From a virus (taxonomy: Duplodnaviria > Caudoviricetes): a DNA stretch of 64,000 nucleotides. The translations under genes were made by a program, and so were the position numbers. The notes under the pieces were generated by a model, which was not told the DNA's origin, did not search any database, and saw only the letters and a list, made by a program, of their open reading frames with translations. This document shows, in pieces, positions 1-62,753 of the stretch; position 1 is the first letter of the stretch, and every line of letters begins with the position of its first letter. Where the stretch lies: IMG/VR virus record IMGVR_UViG_3300048852_000007, positions 11,893 through 75,892 of that record. One strand, 5' to 3'.

Positions 1-3000
1 AGACTGTCCGGAAGTTTCTCGGTCAACCGCTCCATGTACTGATGCCAACGACCTTCCGAAAGTAGGATCTCGTCACGAGAGATGCCCACATCCGAGATCG
101 AGCTGAATTCACCAACCTCGATCAGCGGCCAGATCGACATACGCCGGTAGCTATCCTGGATCGACTGGATCTCAGCCTTGAGCTTACGGGACTGAACCAC
201 ATCCTGAGCTGCCTCAGCAGCCCGAAGATCCGCCTCAGCCTCGATCTCCCGCAGCCTGCTCTTGGTGTAGGCGTGGATCTCGGCAGTCTTCTTCGGCAGA
301 CCCCGAGCAATGTCCATCAGAGGCACCCCTCGGCTCATCATCTGATAGATGTTGGAGACGAAGTTCGCTGCTGGAACCACCATAGACTTCACCACAATGA
401 GCAGACGAGCATCCTTCACCACGTTCTGGATCGTCTTCTCGCTGTTCATCAGGTAGCGATACGCATCGTTGCCCATGACGCCAAGCGCAATGCGCTTCAC
501 CTGCTCCTGCTTGGCAGGAGTCCAATGGGAAATCCCCGTCCAGGCGTCACCTATCGAAGCATTCCGATAGCCCAGTGCATCGTTGAGCATATCTCGACGC
601 ACATAGAATGCCTCCCCCCCAAAGACTGACCGGGCATGGTCCCGCACTTCCTTCGACATCAGAGAGACCGCATCCCTGAGCACGGGATCCAGACGCTTGG
701 TGTCGAAGAGATCCACATACTGGGACTGGTTCCCCGAGCTGGCCTTCACGTCCTCTTGGTGCATGCTGTGGAGAGCGTCGATCAGCTTCTCATTGTAGAT
801 GCCCGCCTTGGCCTCTTCGACCTGGCGACCACGCCATACACCGATCATCTTGGCCAGGTGAGTATCCCGGTTCAGCCGATCGAGGTGAGCCGGATCCACA
901 CTCCGCTCAAAAGCCACCACCTCCCCAGTCTCGTTAAATACCGGCAGCAGATTTTCACGAGTACCGCCCTTCTCTTGATGCAACCTACGGTTGATTAGCG
1001 CAACCGAGGCCGGGTCCGCAATACGTCCAGCAACCAGCCCATCAGTAAAACCAGTGCTGGCTTCCACACCCGAAGCTGTGGCCCTGACATTCTGCATGAT
1101 GCCCTGGTTGAAGGGACTGCGAGCCGAGACAGGAGCGAAGTAGTAGCTCTGCTTATTCTTGGACCCCTCCGCAGCAGATCCACCGTAATCACCCACCCGG
1201 ACGTAGCTCTTCTCAACCAACTCTACGTAGCGGTCATCATCCGCCACGATCAGGCTTACCCCGTCCTGCTGGGTCGAAGGGATGTGCCCCTTGTAGTGGT
1301 TCAACCGAGCTCGCCCAGAAGCCGCCTTACGTTGCTCCTCGACTCGCTGGCCCACCAGGTAGGCCAAGGTGAACTCCATGCCCTGAGCCTCATCCTGGGC
1401 CAGGGAAGCCATGCTCTCCCGGTCCTGGGTGGAGAGGTTCTTCAGAGCATAGAGCGTCACCAGCTGATCCACGTCAGCGATGAAGTCCCGATCTGGACTG
1501 ACTCTGCCCTTCTGGGTCCGCTCCCCGAGGAGACGCGAGACAGCCTCGGCATTGCGCAGCAGGTTCGAGCCAGGCTCACCCGTGCCCATGTAGTGGGCCA
1601 GTTGCTTGGCCTTACGCTGGAGCAGGCTCCAATGCGCCTGGTCCTTGCCCGATAGCGTGCTCTCCAGGCTACGAATGCTCCGATCCAGCTGGGTCTCATC
1701 CTCCAGATGGGTGAGGATCTCGGCCGGGGTGAAGTGCCTGGCGAGAGCTGCCAGGTCCGTCTTGCCCATGCCTCGGAAGAGGGTGCTCCACTCAGCATCG
1801 GTCAGCTTGCGGGAGAACTTGCCAGCGATGATCGTCGGCAGGTGCTCACGGAACTGCTGCCGATCCTGCTGCACATCCGACCGGGTGCGCTTGATCAGGT
1901 CATAGACATTCATGTTCGAGCTGGTCCGGCCAATGAGATCAACCACCAGCTCCCGGATGGGCTGAAGCCCCTTCACATTGTTCATCATCGTCATGACGCC
2001 TTGGGCCACCTTCTCGGCCTGGTCCTCATTGACGATGGCAGCGGTGACCCGAGCCGAGGCAGCCAGCCCCTGGGTCAACTTGTTCTGGTGCTTGGCGTCC
2101 AGTCTCTCGGCTGCGCTCACACCCCTGGCGGCCAAGGCATTCAGACCATCGACGATGATCTGATTGGCTCGATCCACCAGCCCACCAACCGGGGATGCCA
2201 GCTGGTCGATGAGGGTTTGCCGCTCCTGGCTCACCTCCTGGATCCGACGGGAGAGGGCATCCACCGCCTCCTGCACATTGGCTGCCTTGTCGATGCCGGA
2301 GATCCTCTGGGAGAGCGACTCCAGGGCGATATTGCCGGCATTCTCCAGCACCCCGTCCAACGTGTTCCAGCCCTGGAGCACGGTCTTAGGCAGGGCGATC
2401 TTGGCCATGGCTGTCCGCATGGGATCGTTCACCATGGCCAGACCCAGGAACACCGGCAGCAGCGAGGAGCGACCAACCCCGTCCGTCTCGACGAGGAAGT
2501 TGCCCATCACCGTGTCGAACTTCTCCTGCGCCTGGTAGCGGTCAGCCGGATCCAGACTATCAGGATCCGCCATGAAGTCCTCGACCTTGAGGGTCTTGGT
2601 CACATGGGCATAAAGGCTTTGGGCCATCGCCATGGAGTTGGGGTCGATAGCTGCTTCGGTGGCCAGAGCTGCTGTTACCGCCTGGAAGGTGGTCAGCTCC
2701 TGCGGCGTCATGGCGAAGCCATGGGAGACCACCGAGTTGACCAGCCGGCTGGCACCGAGGATAGCCAGGTCCACCTTGCCCTGCCGGTCGATCCGATCGA
2801 CGGGGTTGGTGTTGAGGTAGTCCACCACCTGCTTGTCGAAGGTGGCGTTGATCTGGGCCAGGCGCTCACTGTCGCCATAGGCCGTGCTCATGAAGAGCGT
2901 GGCATCCCGCACCTGGCTCTGAAGTGAGGGCTGGCTGCGGACGATGATGCTGGTGTTGAACAGCAGGTTCGAGAGCATGTCGTCTTCAGGCTTCGAGACC

Positions 3001-6000
3001 TTGGCCCGACCGAAGACGAGACGCTTGATCGCCTGGAAGACATCCTTGGCAAGCTGAACCAAGGGGGAAGCCTTGGTCTTGCTCATGGTCTCGGCCAGGT
3101 CTTTGTTGGCCAGGCCCCAAGCCATGAACTCGTTCAGAGCCGCAGCAGGACGACCACCGATCTGGTGTCCATGAATGGCACTCTTAGCAAAAGCGTAGGC
3201 ATTGCTGTCGTCGTTCAGAGCCAGGAACTGATCCTGAAGCTGGAGCAAGCGACCAACCGCAAGCTCAGCTTCCTGGTCCTTCAAACGACCATCCAGCACA
3301 GCCTCCACCTTCTCGTAGGTGGCTGCATGGATCAGCTCATGGACCAAAGTCTCCCTGGAGGGGGAGATCAGGTAGATCGTGCTTTCCCCCGGCACAGTGA
3401 CACCCTTGGCGCCATGCACACGCATGGGAAGGGTTAGACCCTTCTCCTCTGCATAGTCAGACAGCTGCTCAACTGTGCCATAGATCACCCGGTAGTCCTT
3501 GGCAGCTCCAGTGCGATGGATCTGATCGAAGATCGTTTGCTGGGCAGGAGCTAGACCAAGCTTCTTGGCGATCTTGTTGATCGCCGTTGGGCTGAGGATC
3601 CGCACCTTCGACTTCGGATCCACCCGACCAAAGGTGAGCTTCTCCTTGGCCGGCTCAATGGCCGGCTTGGTTTTCACCGAAACCGGCTTCGTAGCTGGGG
3701 TTTCCGTCACTGGCTTGGGTTTGGTGGCCGGCTCTTTTACCGGCGCAGAAGCCTGTTCCCGTCGCTCTGGGTCGATGTTGCTGCGACCGGGCTTTTCACC
3801 CAGGTTCAACATCAGCTTGTCCAACTCTTCGAGGTAAAGCTTGTTCAGCTCCTCGCTGATTTCCTCCTCGTTGGTTCCCTGAAGCTCAATCCCCTTGTGC
3901 TCGTAGGGGGAGGAAGCCGCTGCCATCTGGTCGATGCTGTGAGACACCCGAGCAATCGCACTGTGACGGGCTTCAACCGAGATCCCTGCCCGGCGAAGTT
4001 CCTTATCCAGATCCTGGATAGCTGCGGCAACGGCACCGTAAGTGGGCTCCCGAATGCCCAAGGTCCGGCCAAGCTTATTCAACATCTCACCGGGGTAGTC
4101 AGCTGTCGGGAAGCTGGGAATGGACTCAGAGAAGGCGAGGGATACCGCCTGAATCGGGTTCCCCTGCCAGGCATCGAACACCGCCTGGTTCGCCTTACGG
4201 CTGGAGTCCTCCAGCTTATCGAGCGGGAAGTTCACACCGTCGAAGATCTTCAGCGAGCCAGTGGGAGCCCCCTTCATGGTGGCCAGGGTCTGCATCATCT
4301 GGCCGTCGCCAGTGCCAATGACCATCATCGGGATGCCTGCAACGCCAGCATCCGTAGGGCCATACACGAAACCGTTCGTACCGATGTGGCCAGTAAGAGA
4401 CTTGCTCCACTCGCTGGCATTCACGTCCGTGGACTGGGAACCAGCGATAAAGAAGCTCTGGCGTCCCGTCTCAACGAGGGGGAACCGCTTCAGCACGTCT
4501 GAGAGGATGTCATCCCGCTCCTGTCGGGAGAGGCCGTCAGCCTTAGCTCGGGGATCCTGAGCAACCTTCTCTGCGATCTTGGCCCGCACTGCCTCGTTGA
4601 AGGTGTGCTGCTGGAAGATCGACTGGATCTGGGTGGCCTGCTGCACCAGCTTGGCAGACTCCATCAGCGGCTGGCCAATGGTCTGGGTGATGGCTTCCCG
4701 CAGCGGCTTCACAAAGAGATGCTGCATATTGGTGCGGAGGTTCGTCAGACGAGCCTTGTCCACCGTGAAGGTCTTCGCATCGAAGCCTTTCATGGGCTCA
4801 ACATTCTCGCCCTGGCTCAACTCCAGCTTGCCCTTGCGACGGGCTACCACATTGGTGGTCAGCGCCTTGAACGCCTTGGAGAAGCGCACCAGCTTGGCCT
4901 CGGCCGAGGCCAGGTCCGTGGAGACACTGCCGAACATGGCTTCAGAGAAGGCCATCTTCGGATTCTCATCGAGCTTCGCCGCCACCTCGGACATGCGCTC
5001 ATAGAGCTGCTCGATCATCGCGCTGGTCACCTTGCCAGCGATACCCTTCTCACCTGAGCCATAGATGGTGATGGTCAGGGGGTTCTTGGCGATGCCCCGG
5101 TTCATGACCAGCTTGCCGTCCTGGATCTCGAAGTCCGGGAGGAAGAGATCCATGAGATCCTTCATCAGGTTCAGCTGTTCCTGAACCTGCGGGGAGTCGA
5201 TCTCAGCCGTCAGCTTGGCGAACTCATCAGCCAGGTTGTCGGTGGTGGTCTGGTACATATCCTTGGTATCGTAGCCGTCACCATGCTGTTCGTTCATGGT
5301 CCTCGGACCACGAAAGAACAGGCCACCCTTGGCCATACGATTCACCCATTCCTTGGTGAAGCGTCCGGAGGTCAGCAGCATCATGGCGTTGACCGGGCCA
5401 TTGGTCACACCATCGGCTTCGACGTAGATCGAGGTGGTGAAGCTGCTGCGGTCCTGGGTCTCCTGAAGCCGGGCGTATTCAGCCACGGCATGGAGTGCCA
5501 TCACCGTCAGATCGTTCTTAAGGCCCGACTTCATCACCTCAACCAGGCGAGGATCCACCTTGCCGGTGTTGTGGAAGTCCCGGAGCATCTCCACAGCCGG
5601 AGCCAGGGGACCAGAGAGAAGCTTGTCCAGATCCTTGCGAGCGGCATCGAGCTTCTTCTTGTGGACCTTCACGCCGAGAGCCTGTGCCAGACCGAGAGCA
5701 AACTTCCGGTAGTCCGTGCTGTTCTCGTTGCTCAGATCCAAGGTAGAGCGCGTGGGGAGAATAGCTTCACGCACCAGCTTGGTGCTCTGGGGGTTGTAGC
5801 GTCCCAGCATCTGGAGACGACCCACCCGGTTCACATTGTAGGCGTAGTGGATGGGGAGCTGATCCTGTTCCACGCCAGCCTTTTCAGCCGCATGGCCGAC
5901 CTCGGTCACAAGATTGGTCAGATGGTGGAAAGCCGCAGAGATCGTGCGGTTCTGTCCATCAAGCGACGCAGCATGGTTCTTGTTCAGCACTCGGCCTTCA

Positions 6001-38189: not shown

Positions 38190-38639
38190 CCCTCCCTCAA
38201 CCTGAGGGCGTATGTACCCCCCCAGCTCCTAGAGCGGCGTGCCTAAGCCCACCCATCTCGGCCTCCAGAGGCAGATACCCCCAGGGGAAATCTCTCTTTC
38301 TTAAAAAGAAGAAGAGGTAACGGGAGAGGCTGTCTTGAGAATGGGATGAACCCATCCTCAAGAGGATCCTATGGCTCCGCACAACTCCAATTAGAATCAA
38401 CGACTTATAGGCAGATCCGGGTGGATCACGTCAAGGATTCTCCTCAAAGAAACCTGCATATATGCCCAGATTCTCAGCATATTTTTGAGGAAGGTCTGGG
38501 AGAAATTGATGGAGATGTACGAGAGCAGTTTGGTTCACCGTTACACTCTACACCGAGACTACCCCCCCGGCATTGATCTCTACACCATTACACCTACCCC
38601 CATCTTACACTCTACACCTGTTGTGTTGGCTCTAAGCCT
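38190..38639. other. Non-coding inverted-repeat-rich region, probable physical genome terminus
   Basis: No RBS-supported ORF; several hairpins; immediately upstream of the first vRNAP promoter and gp1, which open the N4 genome. Confidence 0.5.
38541..38618 (+). repeat. Direct repeats TTACACTCTACACC with partial TACACC copies between
   Basis: Exact 14-mer at 38541 and 38605. Confidence 0.8.
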
Positions 38640-38657
38640 GGTGCTCCGCACCTTGTA
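38640..38657 (+). promoter_or_regulatory. vRNAP hairpin promoter 1
   Basis: GGTGC-TCC-GCACC (template C-GGA-G loop as in N4 P2), then TTGTAGGAGG. Confidence 0.85.
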
Positions 38658-38709
38658 GGAGGTCTGTGTCCTCCTTCTCTTTGGCTCAACCCTATCGGAG
38701 TTCAAGACA

Positions 38710-39170: not shown

Positions 39171-39190
39171 GAGACGCTCCGCGTCTCATA
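39171..39190 (+). promoter_or_regulatory. vRNAP hairpin promoter 2
   Basis: GAGACGC-TCC-GCGTCTC, with TAG at the same offset from the loop as promoter 1. Confidence 0.8.
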
Positions 39191-41502: not shown

Positions 41503-41511
41503 TCATCTCTT

Positions 41512-41529
41512 GGCACTCCGTGCCTTGTA
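41512..41529 (+). promoter_or_regulatory. vRNAP hairpin promoter 3
   Basis: GGCAC-TCC-GTGCC followed by the same TTGTAGGAGG as promoter 1. Confidence 0.85.
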
Positions 41530-41638
41530 GGAGGGTTCTAAGAGAGCCCTCTTGGTTTCTTCTCATCTTGTTTTTTGGTTGCTCCATGCTGGAGCGAATC
41601 CCCTATCCCTCAACCTGAACAATCTAGGAGCTAATACC

Positions 41639-42058: not shown

Positions 42059-42129
42059 GCCTGAACCAAGGGGAGGAAGGCACTGATCTTCCTCCCTTTT
42101 CTTGTACTCAAACCGAGGGACCACAGACC

Positions 42130-43694: not shown

Positions 43695-44086
43695 TGAATG
43701 ACCTCATCAAGCGGCTTGAGACTGTGACAGGGCCGGATCGGGCGCTGGATGGCGAGATCTGGCGCGAGGTGAATGGGTGGCCGATCGAGGCAGGGTTCGA
43801 GTTCGGCTCTGGTATCTGGCATCGGCAAGATCCCAAGGATCTGTGCGCTTATGAGGCACCACCTTTGTTCACCTCCAGCATCGACGACGCGATGACGCTG
43901 GTGCCGGAGGGGTGGCTTTGGACAGTGGCAACCTACTGGTGCGATGGCAGCGCAAAGCCGCCTTACTTTGCAGATTGTGCCCCAAGCGCCCTTCGAGATG
44001 GCTCGGATGTCGAGGTGTCGCAAGCTTGGGCCGCCATTCCCGCCCTAGCCCTTTGCATCGCTGCCCTGAAGGCACGAGCAGTATGA
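43691..44086 (+). CDS. Phage ABA-sandwich-like protein
   Basis: GPDRALD.EI, FTSSIDDAMTLVPEGW and PALALCIAALKARA motifs. Confidence 0.7.
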   Translation: MMNDLIKRLETVTGPDRALDGEIWREVNGWPIEAGFEFGSGIWHRQDPKDLCAYEAPPLFTSSIDDAMTLVPEGWLWTVATYWCDGSAKPPYFADCAPSALRDGSDVEVSQAWAAIPALALCIAALKARAV

Positions 44087-44292
44087 AACCCCGCTTCAAG
44101 GACGGTGCTCGTGTGAAGATGCTTGGTGAGCCTAAGCCTATCGGTGCAGGCGTCACCAGGCGCTTCGATGCAGGCACTGTCCTGCGAAGTGAAGCCTCAG
44201 ACTACCCATTCGAGGTGGTCGTGGTTCAGTGGGATGGAGAGACTGATCCTCTATATGCCTGGGCTCTCGACTTGGAGCCGGCCGAAGCTTAA
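44083..44292 (+). CDS. Small SH3-like hypothetical protein
   Basis: FKDGARVKM..GTV..VVVQWD pattern. Confidence 0.55.
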   Translation: MKPRFKDGARVKMLGEPKPIGAGVTRRFDAGTVLRSEASDYPFEVVVVQWDGETDPLYAWALDLEPAEA

Positions 44293-44317
44293 CCAACCCA
44301 CCGTTCAGTGCTGAACC

Positions 44318-59244: not shown

Positions 59245-59559
59245 ATGAGCCTGACCACCTGCCTCCCAGCGGAGGCAGAAGTGTTTAGTGTGCCTGGTTC
59301 CCAGTCCGTTGGTATCAAGCAGTGTACCTGTTGTCGTCGGTACAAACTCCGCTCAGATTTCTTCGCAGATAGACGAAAGTCTGATGGTAGGAGATCTGAT
59401 TGCAAGACCTGTAATACCGAACAGACCAGATACCAGTACCATCAACGTAAACGCAGACAGGGAGAGGTCAGCTATCCTACCAAAGGTAGGCCGCTGTCTT
59501 TCTGTGAGCTTCAAGAAGTGATTCAACGACATGACAATCAGCGCCACCATTATCGCTGA
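59245..59559 (+). CDS. Zn-ribbon protein resembling the N-terminal module of HNH endonucleases, nuclease domain absent
   Basis: KQCTCCRRYKLRSDF..DRRKSDG.RSDCKTC. Confidence 0.55.
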   Translation: MSLTTCLPAEAEVFSVPGSQSVGIKQCTCCRRYKLRSDFFADRRKSDGRRSDCKTCNTEQTRYQYHQRKRRQGEVSYPTKGRPLSFCELQEVIQRHDNQRHHYR

Positions 59560-60448
59560 CAGCATCAGCGAGCAGGGTATTCGGCTGACTACTTTCCAGC
59601 TCCGCTACCCTAGGTTCATTCATGCGGAGTTCATGACCCATCGGGTGTTCAGCCGGAATGCCAGCAGCTCCCGGGCTGTGCCAATGAGGCGTCTGATAGA
59701 GGACATCCGACGAGATCCGGCCATACCAATCCACTGGGGTATGAACCAAGGAGGTATGCAAGCCCGTCAGGAGATTCCGGAAGAACTGATGGACGAGGCT
59801 AAGATCAACTGGTTCGACGCCATGCACTTGGCGATTCGCCAGGCAGAGAAACTCTCTGAGCTTGAATTACATAAGCAGATCATCAACCGCCTGCTGGAGC
59901 CTTTCTCTCACATCAACGTGGTCTGCACCGCCACTGACTACGAGAACTTCTACGCTCTCCGTCGGCATGAGGATGCTCAGCCGGAGATCAAGGCCCTGGC
60001 TGATGCGATGTGGGTGGCTCAGGTGGATAGTCATGCCAATGAGCTTAAGCCTGGTCAATGGCATCTACCCTACGTCCGGTTCAGCGACGAAGCCGACACT
60101 GTGCGAGAGTATCTCTGGAAAGCAGCCGGAAAACCTAAGAGGTGGGCAGAGAACGGTAGCGTTCGAGAGGCCCTCATCAAGGTCTCTGTCGCTCGCTGCG
60201 CCCGTGTCTCCTACCTGACCCATGATGGTCGTCAGACCACTGTGGAAGAAGACCTGGCTCTCTATGATCGGTTGCTCTCCCGGCATCCACTTCATGCGAG
60301 TCCCGCTGAGCACCAGGCTACGCCTGACGGCGTGTACCATCGCTATCTAGACGGAGAGGTGACTTGGAAAAATCCTGAGCAGCACGCCAATTTCCGTGGA
60401 TGGCGGCAATACCGCAAGACTCTGATCAACGAGTACGTCCCCGGCTAG
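59531..60448 (+). CDS. thyX: Flavin-dependent thymidylate synthase
   Basis: RFIHAEFMTHRVFSRNASSSRA, HKQIINRLLEPF, SVARCARVSY and HASPAEHQA motifs. Confidence 0.92.
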   Translation: MTISATIIADSISEQGIRLTTFQLRYPRFIHAEFMTHRVFSRNASSSRAVPMRRLIEDIRRDPAIPIHWGMNQGGMQARQEIPEELMDEAKINWFDAMHLAIRQAEKLSELELHKQIINRLLEPFSHINVVCTATDYENFYALRRHEDAQPEIKALADAMWVAQVDSHANELKPGQWHLPYVRFSDEADTVREYLWKAAGKPKRWAENGSVREALIKVSVARCARVSYLTHDGRQTTVEEDLALYDRLLSRHPLHASPAEHQATPDGVYHRYLDGEVTWKNPEQHANFRGWRQYRKTLINEYVPG

Positions 60449-60710
60449 TCCTGGGACTCTTTCTTTGGGTTGGTTCAACCCAAAACGCTGAATCCACAAG
60501 CCCGGATTCAGAGCAAGCAGACACGGCAGAGGCTGTGTGTCGTGGCTTGCCTTTCTTCAGATTGGGGCTTCGCACTGTGCGAGGCACGCTACGCTTATCG
60601 TAAGGGCGTAGAGCGAGTGGGGGTTCTCTTCGAGAGCTGCCGCAACTCGTCCCATCTTCATAGGGGCCTCTACCCCCCGAGAGGCAGGCTGAACCTATCC
60701 TCCAGTTCAG
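60447..60710 (+). ncRNA. Candidate multi-hairpin structured RNA
   Basis: About eight adjacent stems, GU pairs favour the plus strand, no RBS-supported ORF. Confidence 0.45.
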
Positions 60711-60773
60711 AGTGAGCAGGTGTGTCACCACCGTGGCTCATCCCACCCTATCAATGGAACCAAGGAGCAAGAC

Positions 60774-61025
60774 ATGACCTGGAATTATAGGCTCATTCTG
60801 CACGACACGAACGTCGATGCCGAGGCTCACTGGATCGGCTTGCACGAGGTCTATTACGACGGTGAGCGGATCAAGAGCTGGACCGAGAACGCTGTCCCCT
60901 TTGAGTGCTACGCCGATGAGGGAGCTGCCGGACTGATTAACTCTCTACAGATGGCACTACGAGATGCTCAGAAGCATCCGATGCTCTTAGAAAGTGAGCT
61001 CTGCCAGGGGAAGCGCGATGCCTGA
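60774..61025 (+). CDS. Conserved phage hypothetical protein
   Basis: WNYRL, GLHEVYY and WTE motifs. Confidence 0.7.
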   Translation: MTWNYRLILHDTNVDAEAHWIGLHEVYYDGERIKSWTENAVPFECYADEGAAGLINSLQMALRDAQKHPMLLESELCQGKRDA

Positions 61026-61212
61026 AACCACACCTGATGAAATCGCCACAGCCCTCACTACGTCGCAACGTGCCGTGATGGCTGGCCGTTCCTCGGCGGG
61101 ACTCCGCGATGCAGCGGAGCTGATCGCTCTGCGGCTGATTGAGAGCGACGGCCAATTCACACCGCTCGGTCGGGAGGTGGCGGCTATCTGCCGGGAGAGC
61201 GGCAATGCCTGA
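61018..61212 (+). CDS. Small wHTH-like protein
   Basis: LT.SQR, L..LRLI and TPLGREVA. Confidence 0.55.
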   Translation: MPETTPDEIATALTTSQRAVMAGRSSAGLRDAAELIALRLIESDGQFTPLGREVAAICRESGNA

Positions 61213-61492
61213 AACCACCAACTGGATGGCCCGATCGGCTGCCGTGAGTGAGGCTGATGACAGCGAATGGGACCGCCTGAGCGATGCCTACGATCTGGAT
61301 TGGAAGGCGGCGTACTGCGCTGCATTTCGAGAGATCGCACACGCCCGAGGCTGGAAGGCTAAGGACATCGAAAGCGGTTGGCTGGACGCCATGCCGGACG
61401 AGGCGCTGATTGCCTACAGCGGTCGAGCAGGTTTCTGCCCCCGCGAGGCAGCCGAAGCTGATGTGAAGGAGTGCGAACTTGCCTGCACATGA
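61205..61492 (+). CDS. Hypothetical acidic protein
   Basis: 95 aa, overlap-coupled. Confidence 0.6.
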   Translation: MPETTNWMARSAAVSEADDSEWDRLSDAYDLDWKAAYCAAFREIAHARGWKAKDIESGWLDAMPDEALIAYSGRAGFCPREAAEADVKECELACT

Positions 61493-61658
61493 CACACCCC
61501 AAACCACCGAAGCAGGGCCGGGACAGGCGGAGTACGAAATGTGGCTCCAATGGATCACCGCCCCAGGCGAGCCGCTAGAACCAACGTGGGCAAACCTGCC
61601 GCAGCCGGATCGGGATTACTGGATAGCGGTGGAGAAGGAAAACGGCCGTGGCAAATGA
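61479..61658 (+). CDS. Small hypothetical protein
   Basis: TTG start 7 nt after AAGGAG; W.NLP..DRDYW motif. Confidence 0.45.
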   Translation: MPAHDTPQTTEAGPGQAEYEMWLQWITAPGEPLEPTWANLPQPDRDYWIAVEKENGRGK

Positions 61659-61863
61659 CAGGACAACTCTGCCCCTCCCTACACCTGACCAGGCTGCCCT
61701 GGTCCTAGCCTCAATGGAAGAGGAGGCAGTGATCCTCCGCTCCCATGCCAAAGCATTCCCGGACATTTGTGAGGTCTATCTGGATCTCGCTGATGCCTTC
61801 GAGAGCGTAGCGGAGCTGGTTCGGACAGTATCCCTCACAGGACCGATAACATCTCCTATCTAA
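61648..61863 (+). CDS. Hypothetical protein
   Basis: 71 aa with GGAG RBS. Confidence 0.55.
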   Translation: MANDRTTLPLPTPDQAALVLASMEEEAVILRSHAKAFPDICEVYLDLADAFESVAELVRTVSLTGPITSPI

Positions 61864-61957
61864 GAACCTCAGGTTGTATCTAAAAATGAGAAGATAATTC
61901 TTCTCTGTATAATGTATCTAAGTTATGGTTTGCCTCATCAACCTAGAGGTGAACAAC

Positions 61958-62302
61958 ATGTCCACGGTGCTGCGTCGCAATAGAAAAGGCTCTGACGAAG
62001 AGATCCTCCGTCTGAACAGTATTGGCCTCTCGCTTTCTACCATTGCCAGCATCGTGGATTGTCACCCCACGTCGATTACCTTACGGCTCAAGTCCTTGAA
62101 GGTTCCCCCGGCTGATACCCGCCGCAGCTTCATGGAAGATATTCTCGCCACTCTGCCTCCGGAGTTTAAGGAGGATATCGCTGACGCTCTCCTCGCTGAC
62201 GAGAAGCCCAAGTCCATCAAGGACTATGTGCGGGAGCTGATCGAGAAGGACGTGACGAGCCGCAAGACCCAGAACCCCATCATGGAGCTCATTGATGCCT
62301 GA
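61958..62302 (+). CDS. HTH DNA-binding protein conserved in N4-like phages
   Basis: RLNSIGLSLSTIA...CHPTSITLRLK.L.VPPADTRRSFMEDI. Confidence 0.7.
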   Translation: MSTVLRRNRKGSDEEILRLNSIGLSLSTIASIVDCHPTSITLRLKSLKVPPADTRRSFMEDILATLPPEFKEDIADALLADEKPKSIKDYVRELIEKDVTSRKTQNPIMELIDA

Positions 62303-62753
62303 TCCGGACACACTCGGTCAGACTGTCCTCTGGTTCGAGCGGGCTGTTCCCGCTCCGACCAGCAAGAACCTGCATACCCAACTCGGCTGTCACTTCGAGG
62401 AAGTGGCTGAGATGATCGACGTTCTTGATTCTGGAAACCCACGAACCAATCGTCTGCTGCTGGATGCCAAACTGGCTCTGGAAGTTCTGGCGACACACCT
62501 CAAAGCGTATGATGAGGTGGTTCACGTTCCACCGCATTATCGGGCAGATCTACTGGATGCCCTCTGCGACCAGATCGTTACCGCTACTGGCGTCGGTCAC
62601 ATGATGGGTTTCCTGATTCAGGAGGCCGTGCATGTGGTCAACTTGTCCAACTGGAGCAAGTTCGACGACAACGGCCAGCCCATCTTCGATACGAACCGCA
62701 AGGTTCAGAAAGGGCCGAACTACTTCAAGGCCGACCTAACCCTCTTTGTCTAA
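62295..62753 (+). CDS. NTP pyrophosphohydrolase (MazG/PRA-PH-like)
   Basis: HFEEVAE, LLDALCDQIVTA.G, SNWSKF and KGPNYF motifs. Confidence 0.85.
   Translation: MPDPDTLGQTVLWFERAVPAPTSKNLHTQLGCHFEEVAEMIDVLDSGNPRTNRLLLDAKLALEVLATHLKAYDEVVHVPPHYRADLLDALCDQIVTATGVGHMMGFLIQEAVHVVNLSNWSKFDDNGQPIFDTNRKVQKGPNYFKADLTLFV

Follow-up and report, generated by a model that had tools for sequence, protein, structure and literature searches.

A gap after thyX in an uncultivated N4-like phage that appears to be built from diverged tandem three-hairpin modules

Unusually, N4-like phages employ nucleic-acid hairpins as promoters, and their middle promoters and replication origins are poorly defined. Here we analyse a 325-base gap (60449-60773) in the genome of an uncultivated phage, situated between thyX, encoding a flavin-dependent thymidylate synthase, and dn1, a small gene of no assigned function. 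The window, i.e. the whole stretch of DNA analysed, comprises 64,000 nucleotides (nt) and corresponds to positions 11893-75892 of the 75,892-base IMG/VR virus record IMGVR_UViG_3300048852_000007; coordinates are those of the window unless stated otherwise. In the N4-like phage LUZ7, middle promoters used by RNA polymerase II consist of a GC-rich hairpin with a stem of at least 6 bp and a loop of 3-4 nt, located about 15 bp upstream of a G start, and only four of them are known, without consensus (PMC9163698). Transcription read-through has been described in the same phage, and terminator-defined putative small RNAs have been proposed in the intergenic space between its late orf69 and orf70 (PMC9163698).

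The gap resembles the latter site in being a non-coding intergenic cluster of an N4-like phage; however, the LUZ7 cluster is transcribed and placed between late genes, whereas the gap is known from sequence alone and lies among middle genes. It shares with the hairpin promoters of N4 (early) and LUZ7 (middle) the short, GC-containing hairpins with 3-nt loops and the setting in a middle-gene region, but its hairpins lack the early-promoter signature of this genome and several of the stems are weaker on the template strand. The LUZ7-type shape is found in 60464-60484 (9 bp, 3-nt loop), in 60567-60585 (8 bp, 3-nt loop) and in the inner stems of 60513-60550 and 60613-60650.

Based on model searches, alignments and shuffle statistics, the gap appears to comprise two or three diverged tandem copies, each of about 95-105 nt, of a three-hairpin module, and its reading as tandem modules of about 100 nt with conserved linkers is what appears to be new in this analysis (units 0, A and B, Table 1). 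The closing stem of units A and B follows the pattern AU.GGGG ... CCCA, and the outline of unit A is cloverleaf-like, yet not that of a tRNA. Unit 0 is without a closing stem, and its two-tier end hairpin is followed by CUUUCUUC, in a terminator-like manner. All stems listed for this region in an earlier sequence-only reading of the window are present where it placed them, including the closing pair GAUUGGG/CCCAUC and the GGGGGU/ACCCCC complement that it offered as a pseudoknot.

Table 1. Coordinates of the units, neighbouring genes, signals and related elements.
Feature	Position	Strand	Description and evidence
Unit 0	60461-60554	+	Hairpins 60464-60484 (9 bp, loop GUU), 60488-60511 (8 bp), 60513-60550 (two-tier)
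Unit A	60556-60660	+	Closing stem 60559-60566/60651-60657; hairpins 60567-60585, 60589-60611, 60613-60650
Unit B	60661-60751	+	Closing stem 60660-60665/60746-60751; hairpins 60666-60685, 60689-60710, 60712-60741
Weak terminator-like hairpin	60440-60466	+	CCCGG/CTGGG over the thyX stop codon, CUCUUUCUUU tail; terminator scan
thyX (flavin-dependent thymidylate synthase), upstream gene	59531-60448	+	phrog_85, E 1.7e-87; matches annotated phage ThyX genes; codon score +0.49
Ribosome-binding motif of dn1, GGAACCAAGGAG	from 60757	+	AAGGAG inside at 60762-60767; recurs at other gene starts
dn1 (83 aa, no assigned function)	ATG 60774, to 61025	+	phrog_21321, E 7e-13; no Pfam family; codon score +0.44
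dn2 (small orphan gene)	61018-61212		
dn3 (small orphan gene)	61205-61492		
dn4 (small orphan gene)	61648-61863		
HTH-like gene	61925-62302		phrog_6377
MazG-like pyrophosphohydrolase	62292-62753		
Dda-like helicase	from 62823		
Likely virion-polymerase early promoters	38638-38665, 39171-39187, about 41511-41535	+	5-7 bp hairpins, loop TCC
Conserved non-coding element of relatives, thyX to HTH/MazG/helicase	L004:4360-4747, L086:2395-2796, L084:3464-3850, L087/L088:4152-4248		97-nt short form in L087/L088

The tandem build is indicated by a covariance model derived from unit A alone (60556-60660; model R2). In a search of the window plus 0.94 Mb of related loci, R2 has a sole match, 60661-60745, adjoining unit A on the same strand and in register (21.4 bits), and with filters off in the 64-kb window unit B stays the best non-self match (E about 0.01). 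Units A and B are also similar in local alignment when compared to 1000 dinucleotide shuffles (z 3.0, 14/1000), as are units 0 and B (z 2.2, 47/1000), and 5-mer matches within the gap at a lag of 95-104 number 9, against 2.0 +/- 1.7 in shuffles (3/2000). In a model-guided alignment of the three units, each possesses three hairpins whose stem sequences largely differ, joined by common linkers, namely A(C/G)GCU between hairpins 1 and 2 and AGAG(C/U)(G/A)AG at the junction of hairpins 2 and 3, with CG..(..)CU near the 3' side of hairpin 3 as a third common element. In this alignment 97.9% of the cells are paired and 22 of 38 pairs have changed on both sides. In a sequence-only MAFFT alignment, 21 of the 33 ungapped unit A pairs also pair in unit B, five of them changed on both sides. 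Duplication of A and B with a retained fold has reasonable support (p about 0.01), and the third unit, unit 0, has weaker support.

Several results speak against the modular build. The 97.9% pairing is not independent evidence, since the alignment was fitted to the structure. R2 scores 60461-60554 in register at 13.8 bits, which is rank 5 in the window and not significant alone, and local alignment with 1000 shuffles finds no sequence similarity between unit 0 and unit A. At lags of 150-159, 5-mer matches are just as abundant as at 95-104, and TRF reports no repeat in the gap. As a separate matter, searches for the module outside the gap gave no copies, either in the rest of the genome or in the complete contigs of its five nearest relatives.

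As far as can be told, the gap is non-coding. Using a codon score defined as codon-usage log-odds trained on 20 long genes, all six frames of 60449-60773 are negative (-0.22 to -0.49 per codon), as compared to +0.21 to +0.44 for dn1 to dn4 and +0.2 to +0.6 for the flanking genes overall. A conserved coding signal in either of two open reading frames (ORFs) would, by the sequence-only reading, have refuted its proposal, and neither shows one: the 81-aa plus-strand ORF (codon score -0.11) and the 101-aa minus-strand ORF (-0.36) are both without Pfam or PHROG match and without tblastn match in 50,697 phage genomes, and the 101-aa ORF has zero homologues among 5.8 billion proteins. In addition, tblastn against the gap detects no remnant of the neighbours' endonuclease VII, of the small ORF of relative L002 or of the fragment upstream of thyX, and the gap as a decayed homing-endonuclease gene was rejected on this empty three-sequence search.

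The fold of the gap beats shuffled sequence. Compared to 100 dinucleotide shuffles, the whole 329-nt stretch reaches -132.3 kcal/mol on the plus strand (z -2.98, 0/100 shuffles as good) and -127.1 kcal/mol on the minus strand (z -2.44), and the proposal of a structured region thus survives the shuffle comparison that had been suggested for it. The signal is unevenly distributed. Unit A (60556-60660) has a z of -3.74 and -47.6 kcal/mol on the plus strand versus -1.75 and -32.5 kcal/mol on the minus strand, and its minimum-free-energy and centroid structures have equal energy and differ in one pair. The 60440-60558 segment has a z of -3.3 on both strands (-47.6 kcal/mol on plus, -47.5 kcal/mol on minus), and 60660-60775, which holds unit B, is at chance level (z -0.37), with the better fold on the minus strand (-44.8 vs -34.3 kcal/mol). 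The earlier statement that mismatches are GU on the plus strand applies to unit A only; elsewhere the other strand folds as well (60440-60558) or better (60660-60775).

Set against the genome, the density of stems is less striking. Ranked by GC-adjusted energy, the 200-nt windows of the region are at 87-94 of 1893 on the plus strand (top 5%) and ordinary on the minus strand, and the 105-nt core 60556-60660, a window picked after its fold was known, comes 43rd among 5052 in fold energy and 30th in plus-over-minus asymmetry (top 1% for both). Local hairpins of -10 kcal/mol or lower extend over 63% of the genome, a measure on which the gap is average; perfect hairpins (stem at least 6 bp, loop 3-4 nt) number 102 in the genome versus 30-45 in block shuffles, many of them within genes. 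The 'wall-to-wall stems' that first drew attention to the gap are thus near the norm, because the hairpin load is high genome-wide, and dense stems by themselves are no distinguishing mark in this genome. The genome-wide excess may be linked to the N4-type use of DNA hairpins. Nor is the gap the strongest candidate for a structured RNA, as had been claimed: 44060-44200 on the plus strand is far more structured (z -6.29 vs shuffles) and is the top window in both genome-wide fold scans. That region forms an imperfect hairpin of about 100 nt that overlaps the start of a 63-aa ORF (44123-44314). Of the earlier proposal of a functional non-coding RNA, ribozyme or structured origin, the non-coding character is upheld and the z-score against shuffles is significant, while the rank of strongest candidate is lost and nothing speaks in support of a ribozyme.

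The first part of the gap has features of transcription punctuation. A terminator scan flags 60440-60455 and 60530-60548 on the plus strand, and both have the form of an intrinsic terminator, with a GC-rich stem-loop and a U-rich tract at a gene end, making them putative terminators. A hairpin followed by UUUCUU or UCUCUUU occurs at five plus-strand sites in the early/middle block (38676, 42097, 50021, 51473 and 51685) and at four plus-strand sites elsewhere; 60440-60466 and 60513-60558 likewise present a GC-rich hairpin followed by UUUCUU, as at 42097, 50021, 51473 and 51685. The canonical terminator of this phage at 62784-62810 differs in having a clean U run. Hence, the opening 110 nt of the gap are plausible punctuation of transcription downstream of thyX, and terminators can explain no more than its first third.

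A conserved non-coding element that lies between thyX and the HTH/MazG/helicase genes in related phages offers the closest comparison to the units. It is characterized by the invariant ACGUGGC..CUGCCGG..GCUAAGGGUG and GUGC.C..GG.GUGCG, shows some compensatory pairs and has no Rfam match. In likeness to the units, it is located in the same neighbourhood and on the same strand, has a core of about 100 nt with three hairpins, of which the third is two-tier with bulges of 1 nt on the 5' side and 3 nt on the 3' side, and carries ACG before one hairpin and AG after it. It differs by its invariant blocks GCUAAGGGUG and GUGCGCGAC, which are missing from the units, by occurring once, within a block of about 390 nt, instead of as three tandem copies, and by its position relative to small genes.

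A model of the three units (R3), run with filters off on 91 kb of the closest loci, has its top match at L087:4152-4249 on the plus strand (21.4 bits, E about 0.018), coinciding exactly with the short form of this element, which suggests, but does not prove, a shared family. The string AGCAG...CGTGGCT, which had been noted in units 0 and B beforehand, is present again in hairpin 3 of L087 and is otherwise limited to about five occurrences in 1.14 Mb, both strands. When each third hairpin is folded by itself, unit B and L087 give the same outline, with an outer stem of 6 bp, a bulge of 1 nt (A) on the 5' side, an inner stem and a bulge of 3 nt (GUG) on the 3' side; units 0 and A as well as L004 and L084 have third hairpins that depart little from it. 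In sequence-only alignments, L087 with unit B (z 2.46) and L084 with unit A (z 2.54) give a signal and the other seven pairs nothing, and MAFFT does not align the L087 element with the units. Judged from these sequence comparisons taken together, it is slightly more likely than not that the units are diverged relatives of the thyX-associated element. A weak extra match at L020:5439-5528 holds a T-arm-like GGGTATCGAATCCCTC, where ARAGORN is negative.

We tentatively favour, with a confidence somewhat short of even, the following mechanism, in which the gap would act as RNA on the sense strand, as a terminator and leader. The two-tier hairpin of unit 0 together with CUUUCUUC would stop or attenuate transcription leaving thyX, as a leaky terminator, and read-through would be expected past the putative terminators of the gap, as in LUZ7. 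Units A and B would then form compact, closed three-hairpin domains in the leader of a dn1 to dn4 transcript, where they may stabilise or process the transcript or bind protein, and the module might be a diverged relative of the thyX-adjacent element of related phages. This reading is preferred because of the plus-over-minus asymmetry of unit A, the retained hairpins and linkers, the terminator form of unit 0 and the possible kinship with the relatives' element. Support for a maintained structure comes from the comparison of copies within the gap and from one weak link outside it; paired positions were compared among the copies within the gap, there being no close relative in any collection reached. 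The nearest ThyX proteins are 64% identical in IMG/VR, about 62% in JGI metagenomes and 66% among 5.8 billion proteins, where the ThyX of this phage is a singleton. Both the tandem build and the tentative link to the relatives' element have statistics at about the 0.01 level.

A number of observations count against a sense-strand RNA with kin in other phages. The whole genome is hairpin-rich, the last third of the gap folds at chance level, and outside unit A the minus strand folds equally well or better. The U-tracts of the putative terminators are short and broken by C. By blastn, the gap has chance matches only among 50,697 phage records, and blastn and nhmmer find nothing in 160 thyX loci taken from metagenome and viral contigs. 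When viral contigs were scanned for exact patterns, the first hairpin gave no homologue and the unit A/B consensus gave 11 matches that are all unrelated. A model built from the L004, L086, L084 and L087 elements (R1) has no match in the window under default filters and, with filters off, gives 7.4, 7.0 and 4.0 bits, with one match per unit and in the order of the units. The units also lack GCUAAGGGUG, which is the most strictly invariant stretch of the relatives' element.

Alternatively, the gap could represent an undescribed three-hairpin module, present as three tandem copies here and as a single copy near thyX and replication genes in uncultivated soil and freshwater N4-like relatives, functioning as a protein-binding RNA or a single-stranded-DNA signal. 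Its hallmark would be a third hairpin that is two-tier and has AGC-A-G / GUG-GCU as a conserved internal loop, and candidate binders would be, for example, a single-strand-binding transcription factor, RNA polymerase II or a primase. We regard this as possible, albeit rather unlikely. Such a module, if true, would fit a phage family known to read DNA hairpins.

It is similarly doubtful that the gap is functionless, i.e. debris of local duplication and gene loss at a mosaic junction, with background hairpins and an ordinary terminator or two. Between thyX and the HTH gene, the relatives do differ: here the interval spans 1477 nt with four orphan small ORFs, in L002 it holds a 52-aa ORF, in L004 an endonuclease VII gene and then about 390 nt of non-coding sequence, and in L084 and L086 the non-coding block alone, while the cultured phage RHph_X3_15 has neither an annotated thyX nor a large gap in the 4.5 kb upstream of its helicase. 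The endonuclease VII/HNH fragment with poor codon score just before thyX suggests homing-endonuclease traffic, and L004 has an intact endonuclease VII-like gene directly after thyX; however, no remnant of a neighbour's endonuclease or small ORF is detectable in the gap. The top-5% rank, the average local hairpin load and the z of -0.37 in the last third are what a dead spacer would show, but not the position of unit A in the top 1% for stability and strand asymmetry. Furthermore, 325 nt of dead DNA would be unusual in a tightly packed 76-kb lytic phage, old duplicates of about 55% identity would without selection lose nearly all stems, whereas each unit keeps three hairpins and the linkers, and outside the gap the unit model matches best to an element that is conserved among relatives.

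An action at the DNA level is somewhat less probable still, yet a serious rival, because N4-like phages read DNA hairpins. Here, hairpins in single-stranded or extruded DNA would serve as middle promoters for RNA polymerase II, or would signal priming or an origin just ahead of the replication genes. The three-hairpin single-strand initiation site of phage G4 provides an analogy for the origin version. In agreement with such a role, the gap lies just upstream of the MazG-like gene, the Dda-like helicase and an 877-aa ORF (804-3437 of the full record), which is taken to be a DNA polymerase by synteny with RHph_X3_15; outside unit A both strands fold about equally well, and the genome-wide hairpin excess fits a phage that uses DNA hairpins. 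In contrast, several stems would hold A-C mismatches on the template (minus) strand, where unit A is 15 kcal/mol weaker, and the gap contains no AT-rich unwinding stretch (GC 0.53-0.61). Four hairpins of the gap have the LUZ7 middle-promoter shape; for LUZ7 itself four such promoters are known, lacking a consensus (PMC9163698). None of the hairpins in the gap has the virion-polymerase promoter signature of this phage.

An N4-type virion RNA polymerase promoter is defined by a stem of 5-7 bp, a loop of 3 nt whose central base is a purine on the template strand, and flanking sequence that is conserved, in this phage GC-TCC-GC on the plus strand and then TTGTAGGAG. GCTCCGC occurs on the plus strand at 38374, 38643, 39176, 32807, 55203 and 59599, and not in the gap; two of the likely early-promoter hairpins (38643 and about 41515, the latter reading GCACTCCGTGC) are followed by TTGTAGGAG. 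A virion-polymerase promoter in the gap was rejected, as no GC-TCC-GC hairpin followed by TTGTAGGAG is found there, and a sigma-70-like promoter was not detected in the gap either. The likely early-promoter hairpins at 38643, 39176 and about 41515 place the left end of the genome near 38 kb, and the gap is thus about 22 kb downstream, in the middle gene run.

Type III antitoxins (ToxI-like) are 36-45-nt near-identical tandem repeats followed by a terminator and a ToxN/AbiQ-type endoribonuclease gene. This and other known RNA classes (riboswitch, ribozyme, tRNA-like, group I intron), as well as a small protein, are very improbable and essentially excluded: the cloverleaf-like topology of units A and B, the tandem repeats upstream of a small gene and one plus-strand frame with a single stop codon are outweighed by the lack of coding signal and protein homologues, by Rfam 15, which agrees with the earlier view that no known family is present (nothing at gathering score in the window, nothing at E up to 10 in the 601 nt of 60300-60900), by ARAGORN, which finds no tRNA or tmRNA in the window, none in the gap at 90% and 80% thresholds and implausible calls only at 70% with introns, leading us to reject a tRNA-like reading of the units, and by units of about 100 nt that are roughly 55% alike and too diverged for TRF, upstream of a dn1 without Pfam family, for which an antitoxin array was rejected.

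The evidence is modest overall, in an orphan region whose structure is moderately above the genome background and whose function we infer; the modular tandem build and the tentative link to an unannotated conserved element set the gap above the ordinary. If true, a repeated, conserved three-hairpin module beside replication genes would be a concrete candidate for a promoter or origin signal or for a new phage non-coding RNA, testable in cultivated relatives.

The genomic setting is in agreement with an N4-like phage. The phage is assigned as an N4-like podovirus because of a 3638-codon minus-strand ORF encoding the virion RNA polymerase (phrog_2206, E 0). The genome has a GC content of 57%, and the closest cultivated kin by helicase are Schitoviridae of Rhizobium/Sinorhizobium and of Erwinia, at about 61% identity. 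Within this uncultivated phage, 60449-60773 is a true non-coding spacer in the middle run of nucleotide-metabolism and replication genes. It had been called the only long gap, which is correct as far as the middle genes go; in the early region, a rough hand-picked gene list leaves two apparent gaps, of 535 and 201 nt. The upstream gene is confirmed as thyX (Table 1). Overlapping its start, a 104-aa plus-strand ORF (59245-59559, codon score -0.04) has partial endonuclease VII, HNH and Lar-like matches (E 2e-8 to 5e-5) and is probably a decayed homing-endonuclease gene.

Downstream of the gap, the ATG of dn1 sits 7 nt 3' of AAGGAG, and GGAACCAAGGAG nearly copies a junction motif at many gene starts in this genome. 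Relatives of dn1 amount to one distant locus, without a gap upstream. A 7-codon mini-ORF (60754-60777; ATG GAA CCA AGG AGC AAG ACA TGA) spans the dn1 ribosome-binding site, its stop overlapping the dn1 start as ATGA; it is without a ribosome-binding site of its own and is probably due to chance. The spacer before the HTH-like gene (61864-61924, 61 nt) is AT-rich with a 7-bp AT-rich hairpin and holds the sole sigma-70-like promoter match of the 3-kb region (ATGAGA-16-TATAAT). Finally, dn2 and dn3 share their first bases, ATGCCTGAAACCAC (MPETT), at 61018-61031 and 61205-61218, a short duplicated gene start.

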